A stretch of DNA of 64,000 nucleotides from Candidatus Omnitrophota bacterium (GTDB taxonomy: Bacteria > Omnitrophota > Gorgyraeia > Gygaellales > Profunditerraquicolaceae): positions 474,509 through 538,508 of the forward strand of contig JALOQK010000002.1 in assembly GCA_025453395.1 (NCBI GenBank), given 5' to 3'. How positions within the stretch are numbered: position 1 is the stretch's first letter; every line of letters starts with the position of its first letter. A program made the position numbers and the translations under genes. The notes under the pieces are model-generated. The model had not been told where the DNA came from. It saw nothing but the letters and a program-made list of their open reading frames with translations, and did not search any database. Positions 232 through 55,631 of this stretch are shown piece by piece.

Positions 232-1095
232 CTATCCGAATTTAATATCTACCGAAGTGTGCCCGAATTCCTGAAAGCGATTGGTCTTTATTTTCACGTC
301 ACAAGGGTTACAAAAACCGAACATACCGCACTTTCTATATTTATCCTCTAAAACAAACCCCCCGTCATAAAGAGAGCCTATGGGCTTAAAATCTTGATAC
401 ACATCGTGGTGACAACGAAAAATATCCGCCTTAGGATCAATCAAGAACTCTGTGCTTTTGCATAAAACATCCTTCGGATTGTTTAGATCAAAACATCCCG
501 GGTATTTATACTGCCCGTGCATTTTACCACGATACTCTCCTAAAAAGTCTTTAAGCCTAAAATCAATCCCCATCTTTTTTGCCTTCTCTTGAGAACTAAG
601 AATTTGTTTTTTGTATTTGGGATGCAAAACCGACCAGACCCCGATACTGAAGCCTTTGTCCTGTAAAGCTAAAACCTTTGATGCAGTCTTATTAAAATCC
701 ATGGTTTCGGGATGATAACTGACTCTTATAGATGCGTAAGGCGCCTGACGCTTAACCCTGTTAGGATTGACTTTCTTGGCAAAATCATCCGCATCAAATT
801 GCAAATTAGTCAATATATCTATTGTCAATCCTGGCTTCAAATGATTGATAATATAAATAAAATCCGGGTGCAGGCTTGGCTCTCCCCCCTGCAAGCTAAC
901 CGGAAGATCCGCGCGGGATTGGATGCGGTTTAACAACTCAACCCAATCTTTTCCAGAAATCATCTTACGCTTCTTAAGATTCCCCTCAAAATTATTAATG
1001 CAATAGCTGCATTTTAAATTACAGGCAAAGGTAAGAAAAACTCCGATATAATTATAAGAATCGGGTATTTTAATCGGCTTTAAAATCTTCTTCAT
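232..1095 (-). CDS. Small radical SAM enzyme with a Cys-rich C-terminal region
   Basis: CX3CX2C motif FACNLKCSYC near the N-terminus and a GGEP glycine-rich SAM motif. Six additional Cys in the C-terminal third (CFDL, CKS, RCHHD, KCGMFGFCNPC) suggest an auxiliary Fe-S cluster. Confidence 0.65.
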   Translation of the reverse strand: MKKILKPIKIPDSYNYIGVFLTFACNLKCSYCINNFEGNLKKRKMISGKDWVELLNRIQSRADLPVSLQGGEPSLHPDFIYIINHLKPGLTIDILTNLQFDADDFAKKVNPNRVKRQAPYASIRVSYHPETMDFNKTASKVLALQDKGFSIGVWSVLHPKYKKQILSSQEKAKKMGIDFRLKDFLGEYRGKMHGQYKYPGCFDLNNPKDVLCKSTEFLIDPKADIFRCHHDVYQDFKPIGSLYDGGFVLEDKYRKCGMFGFCNPCDVKIKTNRFQEFGHTSVDIKFG

Positions 1096-1817
1096 TTGTA
1101 TTTTGCCTTTAATTTAAAAAGCTCAAGAAAAGACGGGATGATTTCTTTAAATAAAGAAAACTTACTCCCTGCCACATCCTGCCATAGCCTAAGCGGATAC
1201 TCTACAACGCCCGATCCCTGCTTTAGAAGGCGCAGTATTATTTCCAGATCGAATAACCATTTTACAATAAACCTATCCTTAAAACAAATATCAATTACTT
1301 CCTTGCGAAAGATCTTTGCGCCGCACTGCGAATCATAAACTTTTATTTTCAAGACTACCCCCACCATCGTGGCAAAAAATCTTCCACAATAATGCCTAAA
1401 AGCAAAACGCTTTATAACAGATCCCAGGCGCAGCACCCTGCTTCCTAAGACAGCGCTGCAATCAGGATAAAGAGCTTTTTGGTAGCCCATGAAATCATTT
1501 AATTCTTCCAAAGGCGTTGCCAAATCCGCATCCCAGAAACCCGCCCAAGAAACATCTTTCCAGAAAGGCATTGTCTTCAGATGCAGCATGCCCTGACGCA
1601 CCGCCTCTTGTTTGCCATAGTTCTTATCCAACGACAGAATATGGACTCTTTGGCTTAAATGCCTTCTTATAACTTCCGCGGTAGAATCATTTGAACCATC
1701 ATCAACAAACAAGAAAAAAACATTATGGCCGCTTGATAGGAATTTATTCATATCAAGCCGCTTTTCTTCGTTATAACAAGGTATTACTAAGAAGATTATT
1801 TCTTGCAGACCATGCAT
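1092..1817 (-). CDS. Family 2 glycosyltransferase
   Basis: VIPCYNEE...FVDDGSNDST and a DAD (DXD-like) motif typical of the GT-A fold. There is a 4-nt overlap with the downstream gene. Confidence 0.8.
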   Translation of the reverse strand: MHGLQEIIFLVIPCYNEEKRLDMNKFLSSGHNVFFLFVDDGSNDSTAEVIRRHLSQRVHILSLDKNYGKQEAVRQGMLHLKTMPFWKDVSWAGFWDADLATPLEELNDFMGYQKALYPDCSAVLGSRVLRLGSVIKRFAFRHYCGRFFATMVGVVLKIKVYDSQCGAKIFRKEVIDICFKDRFIVKWLFDLEIILRLLKQGSGVVEYPLRLWQDVAGSKFSLFKEIIPSFLELFKLKAKYK

Positions 1818-2515
1818 ATTGACAACCCCGGCAATTTGATCCCTGCCTTGGATAGAATGCGATTCAGATAAAAATCAAAATTCAATAAACCTCTGAATAA
1901 AAAAGTAAGTGCGTGCCCTCGGCCAAATCTCCATCCTGACGCGCCACACTGGCATGAAACCCCAAAGAACTTTTCCTTTAATTTAATTATAGCCCGCGGC
2001 AAAACAAGCGTAGAATAGAAATAAAACCCTTCTTCCACTTTCAACCCTGAAACCTGAATTAATCCGGAAAGCTTCTGATAATTATACCTACGCAGATGCT
2101 TTAAAAATTTATCATGCCCGGTAAATAAAAATTGATAGGCCGGGACAGTTATGATAAATTCTGCACCGGGCTTGATTATCCTGTTCAGAGAATATAGAAA
2201 TCCTGCTTCATCCTCCACGTGCTCCAAAACATCTAAAGCTAAAACTACATCCACGCTTTCTTGAGGAATACTTGAAAGGCTATTAATCTTTTTTATCTTG
2301 CCATTCTTGTCCTCTTGAGCATAAGCTTTATCAAATGCCCAGATTTTATCGGCATAGCCTTCTAAAGATAAACTGAAAAATAAATCTCCGGATCCTATGT
2401 CAGCATACTGCAAACCAAAAGGCTTCTTCTTTAATAACATCAAAAGAGAATCTCGGCGAGATAATTCCCAGGGGTGCCGGTTACCTTTAAACGCGGTTTT
2501 CTCAATTAGATCCAT
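1796..2515 (-). CDS. Class I SAM-dependent methyltransferase
   Basis: Motif I-like YADIGSGDLF and a downstream LALDVLEHVEDE motif characteristic of Methyltransf_11/23-type enzymes. Confidence 0.65.
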   Translation of the reverse strand: MDLIEKTAFKGNRHPWELSRRDSLLMLLKKKPFGLQYADIGSGDLFFSLSLEGYADKIWAFDKAYAQEDKNGKIKKINSLSSIPQESVDVVLALDVLEHVEDEAGFLYSLNRIIKPGAEFIITVPAYQFLFTGHDKFLKHLRRYNYQKLSGLIQVSGLKVEEGFYFYSTLVLPRAIIKLKEKFFGVSCQCGASGWRFGRGHALTFLFRGLLNFDFYLNRILSKAGIKLPGLSICMVCKK

Positions 2516-3637
2516 CTAAATAAAATTAACATGCATTGGCGGCTTGCCTTGAGTTTTTTCAAGGGCGCAATTGCCGTTCTTTAAATCCCATAAGAATTCA
2601 TTTACCTTATGCTGCAAACACAAAGTCCCGCACATGGTCCTGGGGTCAAACTCATTCGAAGCAATCAAATCCATGACTTGCCAATAGCGCTTACTCTGCC
2701 AGATTTTCTTAAAAGAAGTTTGCGCAATATTGCCGATATGAAACTTTTTATATTTGCTGTTAAAAAGCATGCCGCAGGGCGCAACTAACCCTGACCCGGA
2801 GAATTGCATAATAAATGGCGGCCCGAAACAAGCGCTGTACTTTCTTTTGCCGCAACTTAGTATCTTCGACCATTTAGCCTTAACCAGGTACTTAGAATTG
2901 GAGATACTTTCGGCTTTTTTCAAAAGATCGGTCAACCCAAAATATTTATTGTAATCAACTCCCAGGGAGCCTGTTTCATCATCACTACAGTGCTTGACTA
3001 CTAAATAATCCACACCCAATTGTTTTCCTAACTTTGCCAAAGGGATCACCTGGTCGGCATATTGCGGCAAAAGCACCATCTGAAGCCCCAAAGTCACAGG
3101 AAACTTATTTTCTTTTTTTATCTTTACACAAGTTCTTATAATCTTAACGACTCTGTCAAAAGAGTTTTCTTCGCAACCCATAACCTTGGCATATTTGCCA
3201 GCAGTAGCTGCTGAAATATTAAACCGCAAATAGGTCAGATCTTTTAACAGCCCAGGCAGCCTTTGTTCTTTTAATAAAAACCCGTTAGTGCCCAAAGCCA
3301 TATCAAGGCCATTTTTCCTGCCTCTTTCCACAGCATCATAAAGATGCGGTGAGCAGGCGCTTTCTCCGTCGCTGACAAAACTTACCGCCTTTACCCCGAT
3401 ACTTGCGGAATCATCCAAAAAACGAAAAATCACATCGCGGGTCATCTTCTTTTCGTCGTTTGCCTGAAGCTTGCCGTAACAATAGACACAGCGGTAATTG
3501 CATCTTCTGGTCAACGCGCAATCAATAGTAATAGGCGCGATCCTTTCGCCGGCCAGCCATGCCTCTAATCTTTGGCGGTGCCAAAGAAGCTTATGCCCGT
3601 CTAAAACTATATTCTTGCCGGATATCTTATCTTGCAT
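2516..3637 (-). CDS. Radical SAM enzyme with a Cys-rich C-terminal SPASM/twitch-like region
   Basis: LTRRCNYRCVYCYG (CX3CX2C) plus Cys-rich C-terminal segments (CGKRKYSAC...CGTLCLQH). The C-terminus ends in ...HVNFI, the same ending as the rSAM at 6432-7496. Confidence 0.8.
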   Translation of the reverse strand: MQDKISGKNIVLDGHKLLWHRQRLEAWLAGERIAPITIDCALTRRCNYRCVYCYGKLQANDEKKMTRDVIFRFLDDSASIGVKAVSFVSDGESACSPHLYDAVERGRKNGLDMALGTNGFLLKEQRLPGLLKDLTYLRFNISAATAGKYAKVMGCEENSFDRVVKIIRTCVKIKKENKFPVTLGLQMVLLPQYADQVIPLAKLGKQLGVDYLVVKHCSDDETGSLGVDYNKYFGLTDLLKKAESISNSKYLVKAKWSKILSCGKRKYSACFGPPFIMQFSGSGLVAPCGMLFNSKYKKFHIGNIAQTSFKKIWQSKRYWQVMDLIASNEFDPRTMCGTLCLQHKVNEFLWDLKNGNCALEKTQGKPPMHVNFI

Positions 3638-3639
3638 AA

Positions 3640-4398
3640 TTAATCTTTGTTGTATCTTTGGTATGAAATGCTGTCTTTAATCAGGTTCAAGGGTTTTTCT
3701 TTTCTTAATAAATACACTTCAAGAAAAAGCTTGATGTAACCCTTGACTACTGCCCTGAATGAACGCCAGGAAATTGCCTTAGGATTGCCTGCCAAACGAG
3801 TCCGCAGGCGATAGGGAACCTGGGCGTAAAGATACCCTCTTTTTAAAAGGCGCACCAAGATATCTGTCTGAAAGAAAAAACCCTTATTGCGGCAGGATAA
3901 TGACTTTAGCACGCTTGTGCGGTACAACACCGTCCCGTTGGTATAAGTCAAACCGATCTTAAAAGTATAATTAATTATAGATACGTAGGCAGATGAAACC
4001 AGATTCCTAAAAGCCGACCGGGCATTGCGGTTAAAAACAAATGGGATAACCATATCAACATCTGACATAAGCCATAAATAGCGGATAATCTCTTCGGGCT
4101 TATTCTCGTTATCCCCGGGCAGCATACAGACAACCTCATGCCTTGCTTTATCAACCGCATCCCAAAAAGATGCCCCTATCCCGCAAGGCGTAACATGCTC
4201 AATAATGTCAACCTGGCCCGGGAAATCACGCATTAGCTCGCGCACCAATGATCCTGTTGCATCGGTGCTGCCGTCATTTACTACTAAAACCTCTGCCTTT
4301 ATCCCAAAGGCCTTGAAGGCATTCAAGGTATCCGTTACGGCAGCAACGATATTTTTCTCTTCGTTTAAAGCCGGCATGGCTACAGTTAAAGAAATCAT
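3640..4398 (-). CDS. Family 2 glycosyltransferase
   Basis: MPALNEEKNI...VVNDGSTDATG and LPGDNENKPEE; GT-A fold signature. Confidence 0.8.
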   Translation of the reverse strand: MISLTVAMPALNEEKNIVAAVTDTLNAFKAFGIKAEVLVVNDGSTDATGSLVRELMRDFPGQVDIIEHVTPCGIGASFWDAVDKARHEVVCMLPGDNENKPEEIIRYLWLMSDVDMVIPFVFNRNARSAFRNLVSSAYVSIINYTFKIGLTYTNGTVLYRTSVLKSLSCRNKGFFFQTDILVRLLKRGYLYAQVPYRLRTRLAGNPKAISWRSFRAVVKGYIKLFLEVYLLRKEKPLNLIKDSISYQRYNKD

Positions 4399-5451
4399 TT
4401 ATCCGCCTTTAGCTATTTTTCTAATCTTGCAAATAATATTTTCCAAGTTAGGATAAAATTCTTTCTCTAGGACATGGCTGGCCGGAGTCGGGACATCAGC
4501 AAGCGCGATCCTCTCTACGGGCCGTGCCAAGAAAGAAAAACAATTCTCCGTGATCATAGAGCTTATTTCGGCGCTTATCCCGCAAAAAGCATACCCAAAA
4601 TCAAGCACTATGGCTTTTTTTGTCTTCTTGACTGAAGAAAAAATAAGCTCTGCGTCTATGGGTTTAACAGTTCTTAGATCCACTATTTCAATATCTATGC
4701 CTTCATCTTGAAGCTTCTTACCGGCCTCAAGGGCAATCGCGGTCATAAAGGAGCTGGTAATAACGGTTACGTCTTTACCCTGCCTTCTTAACACAGGTTT
4801 GCCTAAAGGCACCAAATACGCCTCTTCCGGGACATAATCTTTATAATCAAAAAGCCATCTATGATCTATAAACATAACCGGATCAGGGCAAGCAATACTT
4901 GATAAAAGCAACCCCTTAGCATCATAAGCCGTTGATGGCATAACCACTCTTAAACCCGGAATATGCGCGAAAATAGCCTGGATCGGCTGTGAATGCTGGG
5001 CAGCTGATCCCCATCCCCCTCCAATGATCGCGCGGATTACTATGGGAAGATTAACTTTTCCGCCAAACATATATTTCCACTTCGCGGCGTGATTGATAAT
5101 CTGGTCCATAGAAACAAGCAAAAAATCCGTGCGCATATGGATTAATACCGGGCGCATACCGGCCAAAGACGCGCCAATAGCGATGCCGGTAAGAGTATTT
5201 TCGCAGATAGGGGTGTCAAACACCCTATCTTTAGAAAATTGCTTATGCAGATTCAAGGTTGTACCAAAAACTCCTGCCGGGTCATCTATGCCTTCCCCAA
5301 AGAGAAATACCTTAGGGTCTTGTTTTAAGGCAATAGCAAAAGCCTCGTGTATCGCCTGGCGATAAGTGATAAGCCTGTTTCCCGCCAGGGTATTATCCTC
5401 TGGCAAAACACGCAAATCCGACAGGTCTACAGGAACTTTATCCCATGACAT
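4399..5451 (-). CDS. ThDP-dependent 2-oxoacid dehydrogenase / transketolase-like E1 component, beta subunit
   Basis: ITYRQAIHEA...DPKVFLFGEGIDDPAGVFGTT...FDTPICEN..GIAIGASLAGMRPV matches the E1-beta pyrimidine-binding and transketolase C-terminal pattern. Confidence 0.8.
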   Translation of the reverse strand: MSWDKVPVDLSDLRVLPEDNTLAGNRLITYRQAIHEAFAIALKQDPKVFLFGEGIDDPAGVFGTTLNLHKQFSKDRVFDTPICENTLTGIAIGASLAGMRPVLIHMRTDFLLVSMDQIINHAAKWKYMFGGKVNLPIVIRAIIGGGWGSAAQHSQPIQAIFAHIPGLRVVMPSTAYDAKGLLLSSIACPDPVMFIDHRWLFDYKDYVPEEAYLVPLGKPVLRRQGKDVTVITSSFMTAIALEAGKKLQDEGIDIEIVDLRTVKPIDAELIFSSVKKTKKAIVLDFGYAFCGISAEISSMITENCFSFLARPVERIALADVPTPASHVLEKEFYPNLENIICKIRKIAKGG

Positions 5452-5469
5452 TTTTATTTCGCCTTTTGC

Positions 5470-6429
5470 TTAATAAATATCTGTGCGTAAATCTTCTTTT
5501 TCCGGATAGGGGCTTTTTACGGCAAATTCCCAAGCCTCTTTTACTTCTTCATCTGCTCTATGTTCTATATCCAAAAGTTCATTTTCTTTTAATAATTTAT
5601 TGGCAAGAATCTGACGATGAAATCTTTTATAAGGGCATTTCTTCATCCACTTTTCCACTTCTTCTCTGGCGCGAAACCCTTTTTCAATATCCGTCTCCGG
5701 TCCCACATGGGTACGAAAACGATAGGTGCGCGCCTCTATAAAACAAGGGCCAGAACCTTTTCTGATGCGCGCAATAAAATCGCCTGATTTCTTATAAACT
5801 TGGATTACATCATTTCCATCAAGAAGCGCTTTGGGCATAGAGAAAAAATCTGCTATTTTATAAATATCTGGATTTGCCTGCCGAACCTTTTGTGAAGAAT
5901 TAGTCGCGTAGAAATTATTTTCGCAAACAAAAAGAATGGGCAGTTTCTTTAATTTGGCGAAATTCATACTCTCAAAGAATGTCCCCTGCTCTATTGCCCC
6001 ATCACCAAGGAAAATTACCACAATCTGCCTTTGCCTCTGTAATCTTACTGCCAATGCCGCTCCTGTCCCAATAGGAATTCCACCTGCCACAATGGCACTT
6101 GTGCCGAAAATAGAATTTTCTAAAGATACCATATGGGTGGAACCGCCCTTGCCCGAAGAACAACCGGTTTTCTTGCCATAAAGCTCGGCAAACATCTCTT
6201 TAATATCCGCGCCCTTGGCAATCAAGTGCCCGTGGTTACGGTGATAGCTAAAAAGATAATCGCTTTTCTTTAGATGCGCGCATACCCCTGTGGCAATTGC
6301 CTCTTGGCCGATATAAAGATGCACTGGGCAACGCATTTGCTGTTCGGGATAGTGCTGAATGATTTTATCCTCAAACTTGCGGATTTTAACCATCCGATAA
6401 TACAAATCTTTGATTATTCTTTTATCCAT
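5470..6429 (-). CDS. ThDP-dependent 2-oxoacid dehydrogenase / transketolase-like E1 component, alpha subunit
   Basis: YRMVKIRKFEDK...HLYIGQEA...YHRNHGH and the ThDP-binding GDGAIEQG...(x)...NNFYA motif. No E2 or E3 gene is adjacent. Confidence 0.85.
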   Translation of the reverse strand: MDKRIIKDLYYRMVKIRKFEDKIIQHYPEQQMRCPVHLYIGQEAIATGVCAHLKKSDYLFSYHRNHGHLIAKGADIKEMFAELYGKKTGCSSGKGGSTHMVSLENSIFGTSAIVAGGIPIGTGAALAVRLQRQRQIVVIFLGDGAIEQGTFFESMNFAKLKKLPILFVCENNFYATNSSQKVRQANPDIYKIADFFSMPKALLDGNDVIQVYKKSGDFIARIRKGSGPCFIEARTYRFRTHVGPETDIEKGFRAREEVEKWMKKCPYKRFHRQILANKLLKENELLDIEHRADEEVKEAWEFAVKSPYPEKEDLRTDIY

Positions 6430-6431
6430 AT

Positions 6432-7496
6432 TTAAATAAAATTAACGTGAATGGGGGGATTTTTAAGTTCCCAAAGATAGTTATTTACTTCATCCATGCG
6501 GCAGCACAAACGGCAATTATGCATATCCCACGAATTTTTCATCAACTTCTCTAATTTCCTTCTTTGAGCAGATTTCCAAATCTGCTCAAAAGAGCCTTTA
6601 TAAATATTCCCGTAACAAAAACGTTTATCGGAAATAAAAGCGCTGCAGGCATAAAGATCGCCATTTGAAACAAGATGCGCCCAGAATGGCAGCGCAAGGC
6701 ACTTTTTATAATTTCTTTCCTGGTTTAACTTTGCCATAGTATTGGCTCGAAAAATAACCTTAAATCGATCATCTGAAAAAGTGTCAAGTTTATCTTCAAG
6801 CTCACGCATTTTATTATAGGAAATAGTCTTGGACAAGCGATTAATGCTCTTGGGATGTTGTGAATACGGCTTAACAACCAGATAATCCGCGCCTAAGCCC
6901 TTTACAAGCTTTGCCATTTTAAGAACTTCTTTATTATTTTCCTTAATAAGTAGAAACTGCACTCCGATGACACAAGAATATTGATGTTTTCTCTTAACAG
7001 ATACCGCGTTTTTAATATTGGCTACTATTTTATAAAAGCTTTCTTTTGTGTTTCCATGGATGCGCGCGTAATTATTAGCTGTCGCAGCGTTAAAACTAAT
7101 CCTCAGCCAGCTTAAATACGGCAAGATAGATGAGGCTATCTTGCCGCTTAAAAGCGTGCCGTTTGTGGTTAAGGCAACATCTAAGAGCTTTTCTCTAGCA
7201 TGCCTGATTATGCTTACCAGGCCAGGATGCAAAAGCGGCTCGCCCTCGCCAGAGAATAAAATACTTTTCAATCCGGACCTGGAAACTTCAGATATAAACT
7301 TCTTTAAAACTTTCTCCGATAGGTACTGCGGCTTATAATTTAAATAATCAAAGGCGCAAAAGATACAGCGGTTATTACAGGCCCCGGTCAAGGAAATCTC
7401 CATATATAAAGGAGAGATGTCTTTTCCTTCAAGCCATTGATTCACCCGTCCGACATGATAAATTAATTTATGCGAATCAATACGGTATTTATCCAT
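6432..7496 (-). CDS. Radical SAM enzyme with a Cys-rich C-terminal SPASM/twitch-like region; paralog of 2516-3637
   Basis: LTGACNNRCIFCAF and C-terminal cysteines (CSAFISDKRFC...CRLCCRMDE). The C-terminus ...YLWELKNPPIHVNFI parallels ...FLWDLKNGN...MHVNFI in 2516-3637. Confidence 0.8.
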   Translation of the reverse strand: MDKYRIDSHKLIYHVGRVNQWLEGKDISPLYMEISLTGACNNRCIFCAFDYLNYKPQYLSEKVLKKFISEVSRSGLKSILFSGEGEPLLHPGLVSIIRHAREKLLDVALTTNGTLLSGKIASSILPYLSWLRISFNAATANNYARIHGNTKESFYKIVANIKNAVSVKRKHQYSCVIGVQFLLIKENNKEVLKMAKLVKGLGADYLVVKPYSQHPKSINRLSKTISYNKMRELEDKLDTFSDDRFKVIFRANTMAKLNQERNYKKCLALPFWAHLVSNGDLYACSAFISDKRFCYGNIYKGSFEQIWKSAQRRKLEKLMKNSWDMHNCRLCCRMDEVNNYLWELKNPPIHVNFI

Positions 7497-7498
7497 TA

Positions 7499-8425
7499 TT
7501 ATTTCTTGAGGATCTTTTTTACTTCCTCGAACGCCTGTTTAGGGGTTATAAAATACATGCAGTTTTTCTTTTGATGGCATTCTCTCTGTAAACAGGGGAC
7601 ACAAGAATAGCCTGTTTCAGGCGTAATAATTTTGCCCAAATCATACAGATAAACCTCAGAAGAAGAGCTGGGGCCAAAGAATGCGATAATCTTTTTCTTT
7701 AAAGCAATCGCCAGATGCATCCCTAAGCTGTCATTTGTAATAATCATCTTACAGGAATTAATCCAATCCATATATTCATAAAGATTATTAAGCCCCTTTT
7801 GCCGGGTAACAGAATATTTCCCCTTAAGCATTTCTTCCAGGCTATCCCAATATTGCGCTGGCCAGCTTTTATTCCTCCACTTATCTCCTACCGCCCAGTT
7901 AAAGCCAATATCGTAAATTACTTTATTAGAAGGCTTATAGCCAAGCACATATTCTTCTTTATTCCATTTTTGGTCAATCATTTCAGCTAATGCTTCCTGC
8001 CAATAACGTATGTTTTTCTTTTTTTTATCATCATCAAGGCACAAGGCAAGCACCTTCTCTGCCCCATCATAGCTCTGGGCTTTGCCCTCATATTCATCAA
8101 AGCGAAAACCAAATCTCCTCCAGGCGCTAATAGAATCTGCCAAAGCGCAAATCCCGGGGACCTTCTCAAGATTAATTACAGTGTCGAACCTCTCCCTTTG
8201 AAGCTGCAAGACATTCTCCAGATTATAAGTCATGATCCTTTTGATGCAAGAATTACCCTCTAAAAGTTGGCGCGCCTTTTCATCAACCAGCCAGCTTATA
8301 TGGTCATTCTTAAAAAAATTAAGTATGACAGTGGTGCGGATAACATCTCCTAAACTTGTGGTAGTGGAAGTCTCTTTATCCAACGTCTCCGAATAGCCCA
8401 GTTTTATAATAAGCACCTTGCCCAT
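7499..8425 (-). CDS. Family 9 glycosyltransferase (heptosyltransferase-like)
   Basis: N-terminal GKVLIIKLGYSETLD...SLGDVIRTT...ISWLVDE and C-terminal NDSLGMHLAIALKKKIIAFFGPS match the GT9 (RfaC/RfaF/RfaQ-type) conserved ends. AAGGAG lies 7 nt upstream of the ATG. Confidence 0.8.
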   Translation of the reverse strand: MGKVLIIKLGYSETLDKETSTTTSLGDVIRTTVILNFFKNDHISWLVDEKARQLLEGNSCIKRIMTYNLENVLQLQRERFDTVINLEKVPGICALADSISAWRRFGFRFDEYEGKAQSYDGAEKVLALCLDDDKKKKNIRYWQEALAEMIDQKWNKEEYVLGYKPSNKVIYDIGFNWAVGDKWRNKSWPAQYWDSLEEMLKGKYSVTRQKGLNNLYEYMDWINSCKMIITNDSLGMHLAIALKKKIIAFFGPSSSSEVYLYDLGKIITPETGYSCVPCLQRECHQKKNCMYFITPKQAFEEVKKILKK

Positions 8426-8456: not shown

Positions 8457-8488
8457 ATTATATCAGATATCATACTTTTCTGAATCAA
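8457..8488 (-). promoter_or_regulatory. Candidate internal sigma70-like promoter with extended -10 (TTGATT-17-TGATATAAT) upstream of the GT9 gene
   Basis: Minus-strand reading gives TGATATAAT, overlapping the TGA stop of the upstream gene, with TTGATT 17 nt upstream. AAGGAG Shine-Dalgarno and ATG follow about 25 nt downstream. Confidence 0.3.
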
Positions 8489-8972
8489 AATTCAACACGG
8501 CGCTCCAGAATTTAGAAAAAAGCGCTGCCCAATAAAGTAACCCGCCGTTTAGCTTATACTTGCCATCTTGAAGCCTGACTGCCTTAATTTTAAGCAAACG
8601 CTGAAGCCTTATATCCAGCATCAAATCCGCGGAGTAAATATTTTTTAGTTGATCAAAAGTCAAAGCATCAGGGCTTTCTTTTATTTCATAGAGGATGCGG
8701 ATGCGCCGCGCAGTTTCGCTCATGTTAAAAATATGAAAATACGCGTGCCCCAAAGAAAAATAAACAAGCCCCATATATAGAATATACAAAGCGCTTAATT
8801 CTGCTTTGGCGAAAAATACGCCCAGCAGTAAAACTATCGGAAAGGCAGAAAACACAGCTAAAATAGCCGCCATTTGCGCTGAAGCAATAATTTTACTCAA
8901 GTATCTGGAAAATGCCGCGTGCAGCAGGATAATTAACAAAGGGATGCTCAAAATAATACCTATTAAGCCCAT
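8463..8972 (-). CDS. Small integral membrane protein (about 3 TM plus a soluble C-terminal domain), function unknown
   Basis: Three hydrophobic helices in the first 80 aa, then a charged C-terminal domain. Organisation is similar to the adjacent 8977-9474 product, so the two may be paralogs. Confidence 0.4.
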   Translation of the reverse strand: MGLIGIILSIPLLIILLHAAFSRYLSKIIASAQMAAILAVFSAFPIVLLLGVFFAKAELSALYILYMGLVYFSLGHAYFHIFNMSETARRIRILYEIKESPDALTFDQLKNIYSADLMLDIRLQRLLKIKAVRLQDGKYKLNGGLLYWAALFSKFWSAVLNFDSEKYDI

Positions 8973-8976: not shown

Positions 8977-9474
8977 TTAACCCTTTCCCTGTTCTAAACC
9001 TAAAATAACTCGCAAGGCAACAAAAAAGCTCAAAAAGACCCTGCCCCGCAAAGTAATATTTATTTTACCATGGCAAGTTCTTAAAAAACCTTCTTGCACT
9101 AAATCGTCAAAGCGTTCTTGCAATAAATCTTTGGTGTTAAAGTATTTTTTTAGCTCTTGCGCCGAACATCCAGAATAAGAAAATTTACTGATTATCAAGA
9201 TCAATTTAAGCGTCGGAGATACAGCTTGAGCTGCCGGGTAGAAAAGCACGTAGGAAAAAGAAAACGAATATGCCAGAGCTAAAGATAACCAGAAATCCCG
9301 TAAAGGGAAAAACTGCATAAGACAGGTAAGCCCCAAAAGCGGAAAGACTAAAAACAAAGATACAAGCGCCTGAATCTGGGCTTTGGGCCGTTTTATCCTC
9401 CACCAGATTACATGCGCAAGCAAGCTAATCAAGAAACAAAATACGCCCGAAATTAAAACATCCAATGTGATCAT
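8977..9474 (-). CDS. Small integral membrane protein (about 3-4 TM plus a soluble C-terminal domain), function unknown
   Basis: Start re-assigned to the internal ATG at 9474, which forms an ATGA overlap with the stop of the upstream gene (9471-9473). The track ORF extends to 9531 inside the upstream CDS. Confidence 0.4.
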   Translation of the reverse strand: MITLDVLISGVFCFLISLLAHVIWWRIKRPKAQIQALVSLFLVFPLLGLTCLMQFFPLRDFWLSLALAYSFSFSYVLFYPAAQAVSPTLKLILIISKFSYSGCSAQELKKYFNTKDLLQERFDDLVQEGFLRTCHGKINITLRGRVFLSFFVALRVILGLEQGKG

Positions 9475-10796
9475 GGCCTTTTGAATATAAGAAAAACTAC
9501 ACAGGCTAACACGGTAATATAATAAATCCACAACGAAAACCTGTAGAATAACGGGTTATAAATAAATTCCACCTTATGTTTTCCGGCTTGCACCTTAAGC
9601 GCCTTAAAGCAAGCGTTGGCCCTTAAAACTTTAGTTTCTTTGCCGTCTATCTTAGCCTGCCAATACTGGTCATAGCCATCACTAAAATAAATATACCCGT
9701 TCTTCGGGGCAGAACAATTAAATTTAAGGTAATTTGGACCATAAGCTTCTATCTGGTAGGAAAAACCCGAAAGATCGCTATCGGGCCCTATTATCCCTTG
9801 GGATAGGCCTTTTAAATACTCCTCGGCATCTTTTAAATCCAAACTCTCAAAAAACCTTATAACCGCAGCAGTAATCCCGGCATCTTGTCTTATTTTATCA
9901 TAAGTGGCATTTAAATCTGATCTGGCCAAAGAAACCATGTAAATATCTGCCATGCGGCTAAAATATTTTAAACGCACAAAAGTGCTTACATTATCAAGCC
10001 GATACCGCTGCCAAAGATTTAGAAAATAATCTTTGGCGCTTAAATTCAAATACAGGTATTTATAAATCTCCTTCTGCTGGGCGCTTTTCAGGATAAGTTC
10101 TTGCGTAACAGACACAGCGCTTAAAAGCTCCTGCGGGACAAAAGCCTGATCTATTTGCTTGTAGGCCTTCTCTATACCTTGGCGTATTTTCTGTATATCC
10201 GCCTCAGGAACCAGATGCACTACATAGTAATTACTTTGAAGAAGTATATCCGCCAATAATATACTATAAAAATCAAGATATGCCTTTTTATCAAAGGCCG
10301 CCCATTTAGGATAATCCGTATTAGCTAAAATTAAGAATGAAAGGATGTTCCCGGATTTTAAATAATTGGAAAGCGGGTAAGCCCCTCTTCTTATCTTATC
10401 AAGCATCTCTGCAGGATTAGAACGGATAAACCCCTGAGGCAGCAAAATATCAAAGGTGTTAGCATCAAAGGCGGCAAGAGTGTTATAAACAGCTGCCGCG
10501 AAATAACGAAACCTGGCCTCTCCATTAACCTTTTCTAAACGAAACTCAGGCAACGATACTTTATATGCGCGATCAACGAACGGGATAAGTGTCTTGTTTT
10601 CTAAAGTAACCTGCGGGATAATCTGACCGGCAAAGAAAAATAAATCTAAAGCCGCTGACACAATTAATACCCATACAGAAGCTGCCCTTTTGTTTTTCTT
10701 TATGAAATAAAAGACCAAAGCTATGGATACAGCTGTAAAAATGAAAATACAAACCGCATAGATAAAATTATAAAAATATAGGTTTTCGTCAGGCAT
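9471..10796 (-). CDS. YfhO-like GT-C glycosyltransferase, C-terminal half (TM - periplasmic domain - terminal TM)
   Basis: N-terminal TM, about 380 aa of soluble domain, then a terminal TM. The C-terminal motif YIYFSDGYDQYWQAKIDGKETKVLRANACFKALKVQAGKHKVEFIYNP resembles the conserved C-terminal periplasmic block of YfhO-type membrane glycosyltransferases (recalled from memory). It overlaps by 8 nt the polytopic ORF upstream. Confidence 0.45.
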   Translation of the reverse strand: MPDENLYFYNFIYAVCIFIFTAVSIALVFYFIKKNKRAASVWVLIVSAALDLFFFAGQIIPQVTLENKTLIPFVDRAYKVSLPEFRLEKVNGEARFRYFAAAVYNTLAAFDANTFDILLPQGFIRSNPAEMLDKIRRGAYPLSNYLKSGNILSFLILANTDYPKWAAFDKKAYLDFYSILLADILLQSNYYVVHLVPEADIQKIRQGIEKAYKQIDQAFVPQELLSAVSVTQELILKSAQQKEIYKYLYLNLSAKDYFLNLWQRYRLDNVSTFVRLKYFSRMADIYMVSLARSDLNATYDKIRQDAGITAAVIRFFESLDLKDAEEYLKGLSQGIIGPDSDLSGFSYQIEAYGPNYLKFNCSAPKNGYIYFSDGYDQYWQAKIDGKETKVLRANACFKALKVQAGKHKVEFIYNPLFYRFSLWIYYITVLACVVFLIFKRP

Positions 10797-36167: not shown

Positions 36168-36170
36168 AAA

Positions 36171-40319: not shown

Positions 40320-41303
40320 TTAGCTATGAAATACAATCTTTGCTCCTTCATGCTCAAAAGAAAACCAAAAAGGCACCAGCCCCATCTTGGCCATTGCCTC
40401 GACCAAAACAGATTTATTCTTTGGGCAATAGAAAAGAATAAATCCTCCTCCTCCGGCACCCGCAACTTTGCCGCCCAAAGCTCCGGACTTGCGCCCAGCC
40501 TCATACACTTCGTCTATGAAGCTGTCGGATACCTTGCCAGACAAACCTTTTTTTATCAACCAATGCTGATGCATTAGTTCACCAAAATCATCAAGCTTGC
40601 CCTTCTCAAAGGCAGCTCTGGTAGCAAGTCCGATTTCTTTTATCTTATGCAATCTCTGGATAGTTTTCTTATCATCCTGCTTAGTTTTTTGGTCTTGCTC
40701 AATTAAAACATCGCTTGCTGATCTTTCTTTATTCAAGAAAAAAAGCAGAAGATTATTCTGCAATTGAGCCAAATCTTCTTCCTTGATATCTACGGGATCA
40801 ACAACCACTGTGCCATCCGTATTAAAAGTATAGGCATTAAACCCGCCAAAACTAGCCACATACTGGTCTTGCTTACCAATCGGCTGCTTTAGAATATCAA
40901 GTTCTAAATGGCAAGCCGCCTCTGCCAGATCTTCAAGATTTAAATATTGCTTTTTATACGCATAAAGGCCGTTAAGCAATGAAACGGTAAAACTAGAAGA
41001 AGTGCCTAATCCGCAATGCGCCGGGACATCGGCTATAGAAACAATCTCTATCTGCCGGTTAATTTGCAACAGCTTTAATACCTCGCGGAATATTTTATGC
41101 TCTATGTCCTTAACCTGGCCCACTATTTCGGTCTTGGAATAAGAAAGGCGGATGGACTGATTAAAACGTTTATTGATATTAATATAAACGTATTTATTTA
41201 TTGCCGCGGCCATTAAGAATCCGCCATACTTTTTGTAATATGACGGTAAATCGGTTCCACCCCCGCCCATAGATAATCTAACCGGAGCGCGCGATATAAT
41301 CAT
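40320..41303 (-). CDS. GHMP-family sugar kinase, D-glycero-alpha-D-manno-heptose-7-phosphate kinase (HddA)-like
   Basis: MIISRAPVRLSMGGGGTD N-terminus typical of heptose/fucose GHMP kinases and the ATP-binding motif VPAHCGLGTSSS (PxGxGLGSS). It sits beside gmhA and the hddC-gmhB fusion. Confidence 0.7.
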   Translation of the reverse strand: MIISRAPVRLSMGGGGTDLPSYYKKYGGFLMAAAINKYVYININKRFNQSIRLSYSKTEIVGQVKDIEHKIFREVLKLLQINRQIEIVSIADVPAHCGLGTSSSFTVSLLNGLYAYKKQYLNLEDLAEAACHLELDILKQPIGKQDQYVASFGGFNAYTFNTDGTVVVDPVDIKEEDLAQLQNNLLLFFLNKERSASDVLIEQDQKTKQDDKKTIQRLHKIKEIGLATRAAFEKGKLDDFGELMHQHWLIKKGLSGKVSDSFIDEVYEAGRKSGALGGKVAGAGGGGFILFYCPKNKSVLVEAMAKMGLVPFWFSFEHEGAKIVFHS

Positions 41304-41309
41304 ATAATC

Positions 41310-42275
41310 TTAGATTGGTTTTTTGCAACTTTTATATATGGCCTCTGCTGATTTAGTTATTGCCTGAAGACTTGAGTAGGAATTATTCCAACCCAGCTTG
41401 CGGATCTTGCTTGAATCAAGCCTTACTACAGGGACATCACCCTGCCAACCCCTAGACCCGCCTGTGTATTCGTATTTAACTTTACTTAAACCCATTACCC
41501 TGGTTACAACATCCGCGATCTGCTTGACGCTTATTGAATCCAGTGTTGATACATTATAAAAATTAAATCCCTTATTCTTTCGTTGCGTCAATAAGATGGC
41601 TTTTATGACATCGCTTACATAAATATAAGACTTACTCTGTTTGCCGTTGCCTAATATCTTAAGGCGCTTTTTATCCTTTAACAATCTTCTGACAAAATCA
41701 TACCCCACCCCATGCGTCTGGTTTGGCCCCACGACATTGGCAAATCTTAAAACTGTCGCGTTAATCCCGAACATATGGCAATAAGCGCAGATAAGCGCTT
41801 CTGCGGCAAGTTTACTTGCGCCATAAGTGGAAACCGGTAAAAGCGGAGCATATTGCTCACTTAATCTATTTAAGCCAACATCGCCATAAATTCCGCTTCC
41901 AGATGAAAAAATTAGATTTTTTACACCGTTTACGCGCATTGCCTCAAGTATATTGTTCACCAGATATGTCCCTTCCCAGAAATCTATTTCTGGAAATTTA
42001 ACTGCGCGGGCGATATCAGCATTAGAAGCAAAATGATACACCAGCGAAACATCTTTAGTCAAACAACGCGATAACTTCTTTATGTCTTTAATATCAGCGT
42101 TTATTATCTGCAGACGAGAAGAACGCAAGTCTGATAAAAATGAAATATCCCCTGAAGAGAAATTATCATAAACGACAACCTTATCATTTGGACAGTTTGA
42201 TAAAAGATGCCGGCACATATGGCTTCCGATAAACCCTGCGCCTCCAGAAATAAAATATTTCTTCATATTATTCAA
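41310..42275 (-). CDS. NAD-dependent sugar epimerase/dehydratase (SDR family)
   Basis: YFISGGAGFIGSHMCRHLL Rossmann motif; a YxxxK region is present. 321 aa. Confidence 0.75.
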   Translation of the reverse strand: MNNMKKYFISGGAGFIGSHMCRHLLSNCPNDKVVVYDNFSSGDISFLSDLRSSRLQIINADIKDIKKLSRCLTKDVSLVYHFASNADIARAVKFPEIDFWEGTYLVNNILEAMRVNGVKNLIFSSGSGIYGDVGLNRLSEQYAPLLPVSTYGASKLAAEALICAYCHMFGINATVLRFANVVGPNQTHGVGYDFVRRLLKDKKRLKILGNGKQSKSYIYVSDVIKAILLTQRKNKGFNFYNVSTLDSISVKQIADVVTRVMGLSKVKYEYTGGSRGWQGDVPVVRLDSSKIRKLGWNNSYSSLQAITKSAEAIYKSCKKPI

Positions 42276-42835
42276 GTAGATATATTATTAACTATTAAAT
42301 GTAGCAGGACCGCCTGAAAACCTTCAGCATGAGGCGTAACTCTTTTTTGGTCTATAACAGGAATAAGAATGCAGGCATCGGAAATCTTGCGCGCCTCTCC
42401 TCCATCGCGGCTTACAATAGAGACAACTCTAGCGTTTTTTTCTTTAGCATAACGCATCGCTAAAACCAAATTCTGCGATACGGTCTTCGTTCCGCCTCCG
42501 ACAGAAAGAACAAGCAATACATCATTCTCAGTTAATTTAGAAACCTTCAACCATTCAATAAAAATATATTCAAAACCGGAATCATTAGTCCAGGCTGTTA
42601 ATTCAGAAACGTTATCCGAAGCAGCGTAAGCTTCAATGCGGGCTATCTTTCTAAAATCATTAACCGCGTGAGAGGCATTGGCCGCTGAGCCTCCTATCCC
42701 TAAGATAAAAAGCCTGCCGGCAGTATTTCGTAAATCTGAAATAACCGCGCTTACCTTTAAAATATCTTCGCGATTAATGCTATCAATTATATTTTTTGTC
42801 TCTGCAAAATAAATATCTATATAATCTTTGCTCAT
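42272..42835 (-). CDS. gmhA: Sedoheptulose-7-phosphate isomerase (phosphoheptose isomerase, SIS domain)
   Basis: 187 aa. LFILGIGGSAANASHAVNDF and DVLLVLSVGGGTKTVSQN..VSIVSRDGG follow the GmhA SIS pattern (GNGGS...HF / DVLLGISTSGNS...LTGKDGG; recalled from memory). Confidence 0.8.
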   Translation of the reverse strand: MSKDYIDIYFAETKNIIDSINREDILKVSAVISDLRNTAGRLFILGIGGSAANASHAVNDFRKIARIEAYAASDNVSELTAWTNDSGFEYIFIEWLKVSKLTENDVLLVLSVGGGTKTVSQNLVLAMRYAKEKNARVVSIVSRDGGEARKISDACILIPVIDQKRVTPHAEGFQAVLLHLIVNNIST

Positions 42836-43548
42836 AGTTTCAACCCCGAGTCTTGCGCATCTTTATAAAACATCTTTATCGTATCCAAGGAAAACTCGTG
42901 CAGATCATAATCAATAAGATGCATTTTCTTAATAAAATCAGGCAAAAGGGTAATTATATCAGATCCTGCCTGTTCGGCCTGAAAAATATTAAGCAGCTCT
43001 CTGGGGCTGGCCCATAAAATCTTAATGTTAGGCTTGTTTTTAATGAGAATCTTTGCCTTTTTAATAAATTCCACGGGGTCAACTCCTGTATCGGCAATCC
43101 TGCCGGAAAAGATAGAAAAAATAATATCCGCATCAGAATCGAGTTTATTGGCGACCTTCTTGATCTGCTCCAAAGTCATTATTGCGGTAACATTGACCTT
43201 TATCTTATCCTTGGAAAGCTCTGCAATAAGCTCAGAAGAGTCATCGCCCCTTGTATTCATAACCGGGATCTTCACATATATATTGGATCCAAAACCAGAA
43301 AGCCTTTTAGCCTGCTGTTTCATTTCTCTAAAATCATCGCTTATAACTTCAAAAGAAATAGGTTTGCCAGCTACAATCGGCAGAATCTGTTTTATAAATC
43401 CACAATAATCTTTTACCTGGGCCTTCCGCATAAGCGTGGGGTTGGTAGTAAATCCGTGTATATAGTCAAGCCCCGCCATAGAACGTAAATCATCAAGGCT
43501 TGCCCCATCACAGTATATTTTGACTTTAAGCGACCTAATTTTATTCAT
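42832..43548 (-). CDS. Transaldolase-family enzyme (TalC/Fsa-type, ~24 kDa)
   Basis: YCDGASLDD...GFTTNPTLM (matching DTSD...GVTTNPSII) and the active-site-Lys context VKIPV; 238 aa. A transaldolase can supply sedoheptulose-7-P to GmhA. Confidence 0.7.
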   Translation of the reverse strand: MNKIRSLKVKIYCDGASLDDLRSMAGLDYIHGFTTNPTLMRKAQVKDYCGFIKQILPIVAGKPISFEVISDDFREMKQQAKRLSGFGSNIYVKIPVMNTRGDDSSELIAELSKDKIKVNVTAIMTLEQIKKVANKLDSDADIIFSIFSGRIADTGVDPVEFIKKAKILIKNKPNIKILWASPRELLNIFQAEQAGSDIITLLPDFIKKMHLIDYDLHEFSLDTIKMFYKDAQDSGLKL

Positions 43549-43549
43549 A

Positions 43550-44875
43550 TTACTCTTTCGTATCTCTTAAATACCCAGCAAAATCAAGAATATTCTCAAA
43601 AACCAAATCCGGCTTACACTCCTGCAATCCCCCTGAATCATCCTTTTTATATTTACCGATAAAAACAGAACGCACGGACTTTTTCTTAGCCGCCAATATA
43701 TCTGCGGATGAATCTCCGACCATGTATGAATTGCCTATATCGATATTATATTTATCAATCGCCGTTTCTAAGAGCCCTGCTTGCGGCTTACGGCATTGGC
43801 ACTTCTTAACAAGAAACTGTTCTGCCGCTAGGTCAGAACCCTCCTGATGATGCGGACAAACCATAACATCATCTATTTCTACGCCATTTTCTCTGAATAG
43901 ATCCAGCATCCTATTATTGATTGCGTATATATCTTTAAGGGTGGTTTTCCCTTTTGCTGCCGCAGGCTGATTTGTGACCACGATCAAAAGAAACCCGTGT
44001 TTTTTCATCTGCTTTAACGCATCAAAAACTCCATCAATAAGACAAAATTCGTCCGGCTTTAATGGAGAATCAAACTGCTTGATATTATCATTAAAAACAA
44101 ACTTGTTTAATGTGCCGTCGCGATCAAGAAATATTGCTTTATTCTTCTGTGATAAGCGCTGTTTTATGAAATTCCTAAATTCTTCTAATGAACCCGAATT
44201 GCCTATTTCGCGGAATCTCTTTCTAGTTACAAAACCCGCAAGCAAACCATCCCTGACAAGCATAGAGTAAAAATCTGATAAATCGCCCACCGATGCGGGG
44301 ATTTTATCCACCAAAGCTTTATTTAAAAAGCTTGTGCCATAATCAATATAATCCATTTCTGCCTGACTGGACTTTTTATCGTATTTAACGATTCGGTTAT
44401 TCTCAAAAACTATGTTACTTTTATCATAAAGATTATTATTCTTAAGAATGCACATCATGCCTGAACCAGAGGAACTTTTCTTTAACAGCCAATAATTATA
44501 CAAGGCTTGCTGATAATCCATGTCCATAAAAGAGTCTCCATAAGAAAGCATAAAATCATCTTCCAAAAGCAACATGGCATTTTTAAGAGCACTCGCTGTG
44601 CCTTCAGCACCCGGCGGGTCAGGTGAATATTCTATTTTTACGCCAAATTCAACGCCATCGCCAAAAAAATCATATATATATTCTTTCCCAAAGCCAACAC
44701 AGAAAATAAACTTCTTAAAACCAGCTAAACGCAATAGGTCAAACTGATAAGAGAAAAACGGCTTGCCTTCTACTTCAGCCATGGCTTTAGGCAGATTGCC
44801 AATGACACCGCCTAAACGCGTACCCTTACCCCCCATCAAAACAACGACCTGTAATTCTCTTGCATCTGGAATCAT
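43550..44875 (-). CDS. Bifunctional sugar-1-phosphate nucleotidyltransferase (HddC-like) / D,D-heptose-1,7-bisphosphate phosphatase (GmhB, HAD) fusion
   Basis: N-terminal VVLMGGKGTRLGGVIGNLPKAMAEVEGKPF nucleotidyltransferase signature. C-terminal AIFLDRDGTLNKF...LLIVVTNQ...KG HAD motifs typical of GmhB. Confidence 0.7.
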   Translation of the reverse strand: MIPDARELQVVVLMGGKGTRLGGVIGNLPKAMAEVEGKPFFSYQFDLLRLAGFKKFIFCVGFGKEYIYDFFGDGVEFGVKIEYSPDPPGAEGTASALKNAMLLLEDDFMLSYGDSFMDMDYQQALYNYWLLKKSSSGSGMMCILKNNNLYDKSNIVFENNRIVKYDKKSSQAEMDYIDYGTSFLNKALVDKIPASVGDLSDFYSMLVRDGLLAGFVTRKRFREIGNSGSLEEFRNFIKQRLSQKNKAIFLDRDGTLNKFVFNDNIKQFDSPLKPDEFCLIDGVFDALKQMKKHGFLLIVVTNQPAAAKGKTTLKDIYAINNRMLDLFRENGVEIDDVMVCPHHQEGSDLAAEQFLVKKCQCRKPQAGLLETAIDKYNIDIGNSYMVGDSSADILAAKKKSVRSVFIGKYKKDDSGGLQECKPDLVFENILDFAGYLRDTKE

Positions 44876-46595: not shown

Positions 46596-46597
46596 TT

Positions 46598-47368: not shown

Positions 47369-47423
47369 TTTATTCTCCTTCAATAGGCTCGTAAGTTATA
47401 GATTTGACTACAGATAGACCTTT

Positions 47424-50587: not shown

Positions 50588-50590
50588 ATT

Positions 50591-52021: not shown

Positions 52022-52023
52022 AA

Positions 52024-54412: not shown

Positions 54413-54424
54413 AGGGTAATAGGG

Positions 54425-55630: not shown

Positions 55631-55631
55631 A

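Follow-up and report, generated by a model that had tools for sequence, protein, structure and literature searches.

The present analysis concerns a gene pair encoding the alpha and beta subunits of an E1-type enzyme dependent on thiamine diphosphate (ThDP), located at positions 4399-6429 of a 64,000-nucleotide (nt) stretch of contig JALOQK010000002.1 from a Candidatus Omnitrophota bacterium; this whole 64 kb stretch is hereafter called the window. An earlier note on this DNA had described a canonical 2-oxoacid dehydrogenase E1 alpha/beta pair placed between a family 2 glycosyltransferase (GT2) gene and a radical S-adenosylmethionine (SAM) gene, in a window devoid of genes encoding the dihydrolipoamide acyltransferase (E2) or the dihydrolipoamide dehydrogenase (E3) of such complexes. 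This description holds: the coordinates are exact, the domains are full length, the ThDP motif GDG-X26-NN is present, and the flanking genes are a GT2 gene (3640-4398) and a radical SAM/SPASM gene (6432-7496). The genes of the window, which derives from a metagenome-assembled genome, form one long array on the minus strand, and the pair belongs there to a cassette with the order GT9, rSAM_A, E1 alpha, E1 beta, GT2_A, rSAM_B, methyltransferase, GT2 and rSAM_C, the intergenic gaps from GT9 (7499-8425) to rSAM_C (232-1095) ranging from -22 to 18 nt. The genes of this cassette and the two small genes that precede it are the following (aa, amino acids):

232..1095, minus strand: rSAM_C, radical SAM protein of 287 aa without a SPASM domain (PF04055)
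1092..1817, minus strand: second GT2, 241 aa, accessory (PF00535)
1796..2515, minus strand: class I SAM methyltransferase, accessory and outside the core (PF13489, PF08241)
2516..3637, minus strand: rSAM_B, radical SAM/SPASM protein of 373 aa, paralogue of rSAM_A (both end in HVNFI)
3640..4398, minus strand: GT2_A, soluble protein of 252 aa that resembles polyprenyl-phosphate sugar synthases (PF00535)
4399..5451, minus strand: E1 beta, 350 aa, pyrimidine-binding (Pyr) and C-terminal domains (PF02779, PF02780)
5470..6429, minus strand: E1 alpha, 319 aa, ThDP/pyrophosphate-binding (PP) domain, member of an E2-less clade (PF00676)
6432..7496, minus strand: rSAM_A, radical SAM/SPASM protein of 354 aa (PF04055, PF13186)
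7499..8425, minus strand: GT9-family (heptosyltransferase-like) glycosyltransferase of 308 aa (PF01075, 2.5e-12)
8463..8972, minus strand: hyp169, small membrane protein with three transmembrane segments and a C-terminal soluble domain (hydropathy scan)
8977..9531, minus strand: hyp184, small membrane protein with three transmembrane segments, same layout as hyp169 and co-conserved beside it

The stop codon of rSAM_A lies 2 nt upstream of the start of E1 alpha, and GT2_A follows E1 beta with a gap of 0 nt. Both genes of the pair are confirmed as intact members of the 2-oxoacid dehydrogenase E1 alpha/beta superfamily. In Pfam, E1 alpha matches PF00676 (E1_dh) with an E-value of 4.4e-69 over profile positions 1-298 of 300, its residues 142-172 forming the ThDP motif, and E1 beta matches PF02779 (Transket_pyr, 3.4e-34) and PF02780 (Transketolase_C, 1.7e-34), the best solved relative of the latter subunit being the E1 beta of G. 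stearothermophilus (4.9e-74). Alignment to solved E1s places alpha H241 at the position of His263 of human pyruvate dehydrogenase (PDH), beta E84 at that of G. stearothermophilus beta Glu59 and beta H153 at that of beta His128: the cofactor-activating Glu (beta) and the active-site His (alpha and beta) are all kept. The pair shares 40-45% identity with E2-linked bacterial E1s. According to NCBIfam, E1 alpha scores under the cutoffs of the PDH E1 alpha equivalog TIGR03182 (336.6, cutoff 393.85) and of TIGR03181 (195.8, cutoff 411.35), and E1 beta scores above that of NF006667 'PDH E1 beta', which is a subfamily-level model only (334, cutoff 321).

Pfam scans covering about 60 of the larger open reading frames (ORFs) of the window, almost exclusively those of the minus coding strand, revealed no 2-oxoacid_dh, Biotin_lipoyl, E3_binding or Pyr_redox_dim protein; the ORFs devoid of any Pfam match encode membrane proteins or proteins of <200 aa, except 62976-63965 (329 aa). 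The relatives compared comprise 80 genomic loci and several contigs of closer homologues, in which E2 genes were recognised by their DHRxxDG motif and by a BLAST search with the E2 of a Brevibacillus. An E2 gene lies downstream of the E1 pair in 34 loci and in none of the loci closest to the window. In a neighbour-joining (NJ) tree of E1 alpha, 31 E2-less sequences (including the one from the window) are separated from the 34 E2-linked ones with a bootstrap of 100/100. None of the 31 loci of this E2-less clade carries an E2 gene within +/-10 kb, and homologues of the sugar genes of the window are found within 10 kb in 30 of 30 E2-less loci compared to 0 of 34 E2-linked loci. The lack of E2 characterises the clade in its entirety and does not result from a split operon. 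The conserved association with E2/E3 genes in relatives, which the earlier note had named as the mark of an ordinary dehydrogenase split across loci, is absent (E2 in 0 of 31 loci). The lineage of the pair is one dedicated to sugar pathways.

The E2-less clade also has its own signature residues, P35, C90, R183, G243, P244 and D247 in alpha and G54, T88, H105, R107, R198 and Y333 in beta, located in the loops that form the lipoyl channel of canonical E1s. Alpha P35 occupies the position of human Phe61, and G243/P244 that of the regulatory Ser264 loop. In the beta subunit of the E2-less group, D29 is replaced by G and F82 by R, both residues being nearly invariant in E2-linked E1s, and I80 is replaced by H. 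The alpha loop changes at the human Ser264 position and these beta changes are only suggestive of a loss of E2 binding or of lipoate acylation. Furthermore, E1 beta has an N-terminal extension of about 25 aa (MSWDK...), whose motif MxW[D/T]K... is common to clade members.

The cassette was found in at least five phyla, i.e. Omnitrophota, Deltaproteobacteria/Desulfuromonadaceae, Thermodesulfobacteriota, Planctomycetes and Elusimicrobia, with identities of 45-73%. Within cassette loci, the orthologues of GT9, rSAM_B and rSAM_C share 50-73%, 59-73% and 45-64% identity, respectively, a B12-binding radical SAM gene taking the place of rSAM_B in some of them; GT2_A adjoins the ThDP enzyme in most loci, and the methyltransferase (1796..2515) is missing from most of the others. 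On three contigs carrying orthologues of rSAM_A (50-54% identity), the same cassette has a split transketolase in the slot of E1 alpha/beta. For instance, the split transketolase of locus L091 is flanked by GT9 (73% identity), rSAM_A (54%), GT2_A (53%) and rSAM_B (67%).

A scan of metagenomes seeded on rSAM_A gave 80 more loci, of which the 39 with at least 4 kb of downstream sequence were counted. A ThDP enzyme is encoded within 8 kb of the rSAM_A orthologue in 36 of these 39 loci: (i) a split transketolase in 19-20, (ii) an E1 alpha/beta pair in 13 and (iii) an enzyme of the acetolactate synthase (ALS) type, related to YerE, in 3-4. The ALS-type enzymes found in the slot are 45-48% identical to an ALS-like protein encoded elsewhere in the window, and two of the other three loci show weaker E1-like matches. 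Keto sugars are known or proposed acceptors of all three types, namely YerE-like decarboxylases of lipopolysaccharide (LPS) synthesis, E1 alpha/beta enzymes of the 'alpha-KADH2' type and split-gene transketolases (2025 review, PMC12247030). The occupation of one slot by three ThDP superfamilies acting on keto sugars thus lends support to the transketolase or acyloin-forming role that the earlier note had suggested for the stand-alone pair, a role that remains a prediction from sequence.

Genes for ADP-heptose synthesis (HldE, HldD, GmhA-like) are present within 8 kb of rSAM_A in 29 of the 36 loci that have enough upstream sequence. The conserved partnership of the pair with these heptose-nucleotide genes and with a radical SAM enzyme of DesII-like fold is an addition to the earlier note. 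Indeed, the AlphaFold2 (AF2) model of rSAM_A (predicted local distance difference test, pLDDT, 89.9) has DesII as its best fold match in the PDB (E 1e-16, template modelling (TM) score 0.67-0.73), followed by SuiB, BlsE, SkfB and anSME; a sequence search of the PDB with rSAM_A gave weak core-motif matches only. DesII is a radical SAM enzyme acting on a TDP-sugar, and its product is a keto sugar. By its fold and position, rSAM_A would fit the role of keto-sugar maker, with a logic of 'carbonyl first, then carbon unit'. The window itself carries heptose genes at another place (SDR, short-chain dehydrogenase/reductase):

40320..44875, minus strand: GHMP kinase (HddA-like), SDR, GmhA-like SIS isomerase, transaldolase, and fused nucleotidyltransferase and GmhB-like phosphatase; possible substrate supply

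In this GDP-heptose-type set, the transaldolase gene lies between the gene of the GmhA-like isomerase and that of the fused nucleotidyltransferase/GmhB-like phosphatase, beside the HddA-like kinase gene. We take the set with its transaldolase to resemble the LmbR/N/P/K/O route to the octose of lincosamides. It is possible, judging from the association of the clade with heptose genes, that this set supplies the E1 step.

We propose that the pair is a stand-alone ThDP enzyme of alpha2beta2 type that would not feed a lipoyl-E2 and would act as a carboligase within a sugar pathway. The pathway may proceed as follows: (i) a nucleotide-activated heptose would be supplied, in relatives through the ADP-heptose genes (HldE/HldD/GmhA) and in the window through the GDP-heptose-type set, (ii) rSAM_A, with its DesII-like fold, would oxidise or dehydrate this sugar to a keto or possibly deoxy-keto sugar, (iii) E1 alpha/beta would decarboxylate pyruvate and the resulting hydroxyethyl-ThDP carbanion would join the carbonyl, yielding a nine-carbon sugar that would be acetyl-branched, or extended by two carbons (C2) if the carbonyl is terminal, (iv) rSAM_B, rSAM_C and the methyltransferase would tailor the product, and (v) the GT9 and GT2 enzymes would transfer the sugar into a surface glycan. 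The GT9 family comprises users of ADP-heptose donors (CAZy). Delivery outside the membrane could involve the small membrane proteins and the GT-C-type proteins encoded upstream of the cassette, i.e. YfhO and two multi-pass proteins.

That the pair catalyses some E2-independent ThDP chemistry of carbon-carbon bonds on a sugar appears highly probable to us. Its more precise role as an E2-independent carboligase adding a pyruvate-derived C2 unit to a keto-heptose generated by a radical SAM enzyme is fairly probable. We infer the specific donor, the acceptor and the order of the steps with a confidence close to balance and leaning slightly in their favour, and the position attacked on the acceptor sugar in the same conditional way. 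The synthesis of branched-chain or chain-extended sugars, which the earlier note had considered consistent with the locus, gains support by analogy from E1-type enzymes that branch sugars (PMC4425429, PMC12247030).

Several points weigh against this proposal. The function of the cassette is read from domains, synteny and fold. The resemblance of rSAM_A to DesII concerns the fold only (16% identity), and SPASM enzymes that modify peptides, such as SuiB, match nearly as well. The heptose genes of the window belong to the GDP type and not to the ADP type, and 34 kb separate them from the pair. The likening of the pair to AviB1, Pau11 and KbDH is made by type and gene setting. Besides, the two His residues used for lipoyl reduction in canonical E1s are kept, a lipoyl acceptor is compatible with what can be read in the sequence of the pair by itself, and the search for E2/E3 genes in the source genome covered the 64 kb window. 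Finally, the replacement by transketolases fits the cleavage or transfer of a ketol unit as well as it fits branching.

Such ketol chemistry is the main rival explanation: the pair would be transketolase-like and would act on an alpha-hydroxyketone that rSAM_A makes in the side chain of the heptose, a ketol unit being split off or transferred without any 2-oxoacid donor, with a shortened chain or C2 transfer between sugars as the result. A phosphorylated sugar might be bound by the polar, clade-specific beta residues H105 and R107, located three and five residues ahead of the Phe that aligns with G. stearothermophilus beta F85. The Phe at this G. stearothermophilus position presumably stacks on ThDP. 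Split transketolases are the commonest occupants of the slot (19-20 of 39 loci), and acetoin-cleaving E1s of the same superfamily perform such carbon-carbon cleavage (PMC12247030). However, YerE-like carboligases, which decarboxylate 2-oxoacids, also occupy the slot, and the E1 fold is adapted to 2-oxoacid decarboxylation. Moreover, KbDH-alpha/beta, the one characterised E1 pair from a sugar pathway, used pyruvate as its only donor in vitro, and pyruvate is also indicated for the aldgamycin enzyme by the results of feeding and knockouts (PMC12247030). We regard ketol cleavage or transfer as unlikely.

Much less probable is a non-oxidative 2-oxoacid decarboxylase devoid of carboligation, which would supply an aldehyde or decarboxylate a 2-keto-3-deoxy (ulosonic) sugar acid made by a NeuB-like enzyme. 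The release of aldehydes is a side reaction of E1 enzymes that belongs to established ThDP chemistry, and a NeuB-family gene is present at 24393-25472; however, NeuB genes are not conserved near the members of the clade, the conserved partners of which are rSAM_A and heptose genes, and the enzymes that replace the pair are carboligases or ketol transferases. The conventional role, as the E1 of a pyruvate, acetoin or branched-chain 2-oxoacid dehydrogenase complex (the latter hereafter BCKDH) with E2/E3 encoded elsewhere in the genome, is very unlikely and the least probable of all: although the catalytic His residues are conserved, E1 beta exceeds the 'PDH E1 beta' subfamily cutoff (334 vs 321) and the E2/E3 search was confined to the window, E1 alpha stays below the PDH equivalog cutoff (336.6 vs 393.85), the clade splits off at 100/100 with 0/31 loci having E2 and 30/30 having sugar genes within 10 kb, the pair is tightly packed with radical SAM and glycosyltransferase genes, transketolases or YerE-like enzymes take the same slot, and genes for pyruvate:ferredoxin oxidoreductase lie 10 kb upstream in the genome of a related Omnitrophota. 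As for the maturation of a ribosomally synthesised and post-translationally modified peptide (RiPP) by the SPASM enzymes, it was rejected on the grounds that genes for heptose synthesis, glycosyltransferases and ThDP enzymes are found together throughout and that no precursor-like gene was conserved.

The proposed C2 addition has precedents among actinomycete E1-type enzymes that branch sugars: AviB1/AviB2 (avilamycin), Pau11/Pau12 (paulomycin), the aldgamycin pair and KbDH-alpha/beta from kibdelomycin synthesis (PMC4425429, PMC4753412, PMC12247030). KbDH-alpha/beta, the only E1 pair assayed in vitro, adds a pyruvate-derived C2 unit to ketones including sugar analogues, and the other pairs are proposed to act likewise (PMC12247030). 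Like these enzymes, the pair from the window is a two-subunit E1-type ThDP enzyme devoid of E2 and encoded inside a sugar pathway. The actinomycete pairs differ from it by (i) their setting, which according to the review is mainly secondary-metabolite clusters, compared to a cell-surface glycan locus of an uncultivated Omnitrophota, (ii) their upstream partner, an NAD-dependent dehydratase or oxidoreductase instead of a radical SAM enzyme, and (iii) the associated sugar genes, which are 6-deoxyhexose genes instead of heptose genes. In the actinomycete pathways, a transaminase or a reductase often acts next.

Enzymes of LPS synthesis offer another comparison. YerE, ErwE and JanthE use ThDP to add an acyl anion derived from a 2-oxoacid to a nucleotide-bound keto sugar during the synthesis of surface glycans, which is the job proposed here for the pair (PMC9306805, PMC12247030). 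YerE is a single chain of the ALS/decarboxylase superfamily (TPP_enzyme_N/M/C), whereas the pair is an E1 alpha/beta heteromer, and the known acceptor of YerE is CDP-3,6-dideoxy-4-keto-glucose derived from RfbH-type chemistry. The split-gene transketolases of the miharamycin and amipurimycin pathways are also two-subunit enzymes, with a proposed addition of a C2 (hydroxyacetyl) unit to a keto sugar made by an oxidoreductase; they belong to a ThDP family other than that of the pair, and the review lists 13 candidates, all of them from Streptomycetes and none characterised (PMC12247030). The E1s of PDH, BCKDH and acetoin dehydrogenase share with the pair the fold, the ThDP motif, the catalytic Glu and the two active-site His; unlike the clade of the pair, with its own signature residues and no E2/E3 partner within 10 kb of its loci, they have such a partner.

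The earlier note had also pointed out a separate ALS-like ThDP enzyme as a second carboligase system. This view is borne out, the enzyme being JanthE-like and its gene adjoining that of RfbH:

19145-20620: RfbH (CDP-4-keto-6-deoxyglucose 3-dehydrase), downstream of the YerE-like gene (678.8 bits, cutoff 423)
20460-22262: ALS-like (YerE-like) ThDP enzyme with TPP_enzyme_N, M and C domains

The best solved relative of the 20460-22262 protein is JanthE (8RPH, 390 bits), followed by 5AHK, labelled acetolactate synthase II (265 bits), and other acetolactate synthases (<=235 bits); its score of 379.6 is under the cutoff (538) of the ALS equivalog. As listed, with a TTG start, the RfbH ORF overlaps the YerE-like gene by 161 nt, and its true start is probably located downstream. 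Genes for a glucose-1-phosphate cytidylyltransferase (386, cutoff 300) and a CDP-glucose 4,6-dehydratase-like SDR lie at 45612-47383, 23 kb away from the YerE-like gene, and no AscD-type E3 reductase was seen in the window. Together, 19145-22262 and 45612-47383 correspond to a known yersiniose-type pathway (PMC4753412, PMC9306805). With the YerE-like enzyme and its RfbH set beside the E1 pair, the locus therefore harbours two independent ThDP carboligase systems.

The remainder of the window includes other genes of possible interest. The NeuB-family protein encoded at 24393-25472 scores far under the cutoffs of the NeuB (122.9 vs 399.65) and PseI (111.4 vs 340.25) equivalogs, and is therefore a divergent enzyme resembling ulosonic-acid synthases. 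Four tandem genes at 31730-37673 encode B12-binding radical SAM proteins (488-501 aa); they are flanked by radical SAM genes at 30673-31728 and 38519-39562 and by genes for a DUF362/ferredoxin protein and a metallophosphoesterase. Altogether, the locus carries at least 10 radical SAM genes. The only large plus-strand gene (47515-50028) encodes an STT3-family oligosaccharyltransferase of 837 aa. It abuts a minus-strand set at 50033-57791 that resembles those of type IV pili or type II secretion systems (T2SS), and that encodes PilM/N/O, T2SS F, pseudopilins and a T2SS E ATPase bearing a PilZ domain at its C-terminus.

Five of 11 independent cassette loci have pilus or pilin genes within 10 kb. 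Such genes flank the E1 cassette in L004, L008, L087, L088 and L089, L088 also having an STT3 gene. Among 76 non-cassette loci, T2SS E/F homologues were found in one (L087, which itself bears a cassette) and pilin-like motifs in four. These counts were made on the genomic loci, and the pilus genes of the window lie 44 kb from the pair. This distribution hints at pilins as acceptors of the glycan.

The small membrane proteins encoded upstream of GT9 recur with the cassette as well. Homologues of hyp169, which has no match in Pfam or NCBIfam, were detected in L003, L005, L008, L009, L090 and several metagenome loci. More generally, adjacent proteins of the hyp169/hyp184 type accompany the cassette in a conserved manner in L003, L005, L008, L009, L090, L101, L111 and others; they measure about 165-185 aa, belong to no Pfam family and consist of three N-terminal helices followed by a soluble C-terminal domain. 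The start of hyp184 is probably downstream of the listed one, the Joint Genome Institute (JGI) calling a protein of 165 aa. By analogy with ArnE/ArnF, a flippase-like role of these proteins would be pure speculation. Concerning the cassette proteins as a whole, NCBIfam holds no dedicated model for any of them, GT2_A giving weak matches to AglJ, ArnC and PpgS.

A second arrangement exists in the E2-less clade: heptose-nucleotide genes, SDR, E1 alpha, E1 beta, DegT aminotransferase and B12-radical SAM. It is also found in cultured bacteria, on plasmids of Azospirillum oryzae KACC 14407 (212576-214625) and Solidesulfovibrio magneticus RS-1 (pDMC1, 27415-29438). The SDR gene upstream of E1 alpha and the DegT gene after E1 beta would match, by analogy, the logic of keto formation, branching and transamination of kibdelomycin-type sugars (PMC12247030). 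Cassette-type E1 alpha sequences do not form a single subclade in NJ trees (bootstrap 14/100), and the E1 phylogeny therefore gives no clean split between the cassette and the SDR/DegT arrangement. The E1 beta proteins of one subgroup (L018, L022, L029, L031, L039, L042, L053, L064, L068 and L071, and also L016 and L035) have at their C-terminus a conserved tail (about 20-25 aa) with F(K/R)GPF as its last residues; in place of this tail, those of the cassette type have the N-terminal MxW(D/T)K extension.

Other observations concern single loci or small groups of loci. A NUDIX hydrolase gene is present beside the radical SAM/ThDP pair in L090, L093, L094, L097 and L098, and lies between rSAM_A and the transketolase in L090; this recurrence suggests that the nucleotide may be removed or exchanged during the pathway. 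L095 (Streptomyces griseofuscus pSGRIFU1, 137096-139142) has an E2-less E1 alpha/beta pair beside genes for an acyl carrier protein, a phosphopantetheinyl transferase (PPTase) and a protein with a condensation domain; this neighbourhood points to another use of this type of enzyme, linked to carrier proteins. L091 carries at 3335-7399 a gene for a pyruvate phosphate dikinase of 1354 aa with intein-splicing and LAGLIDADG endonuclease domains.

The kind of enzyme and its general role are already known, E1 alpha/beta-type and transketolase-type branching enzymes coming mainly from specialised natural-product pathways (PMC12247030). What appears to be new is (i) the presence of an E1 pair in surface-glycan loci of uncultivated phyla of Gram-negative type, (ii) the conserved association of such a pair with heptose genes and with a radical SAM enzyme of DesII-like fold and (iii) the interchange of three ThDP families in one cassette. 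Searches of the accessible literature revealed neither a description of this cassette nor a case in which ADP-heptose is the substrate of a radical SAM enzyme that works with a ThDP enzyme, although an earlier listing of E1 pairs from outside actinomycetes is conceivable.

The present case is a warning that thousands of metagenome genes with the annotation 'pyruvate dehydrogenase E1' do not belong to central metabolism. The proposal also provides a directly testable reaction of two enzymes, the radical SAM enzyme and the ThDP enzyme, on ADP- or GDP-heptose, and the clade could be a source of ketone-accepting ThDP carboligases from new lineages for biocatalysis. It predicts that the surfaces of poorly known anaerobes would bear higher-carbon sugars that are still unknown. 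More tentatively, as a doubtful but conceivable extension, heptose-nucleotide genes, a DesII-like radical SAM enzyme and an interchangeable ThDP carboligase may constitute a widespread and undescribed module for the synthesis of nine-carbon branched or chain-extended sugars, in which the keto intermediate would arise by anaerobic radical chemistry instead of the action of an NAD-dependent enzyme. Uncultivated anaerobes such as Omnitrophota might then display these sugars on their surface glycans, possibly on type IV pilins or on N-glycans via STT3.

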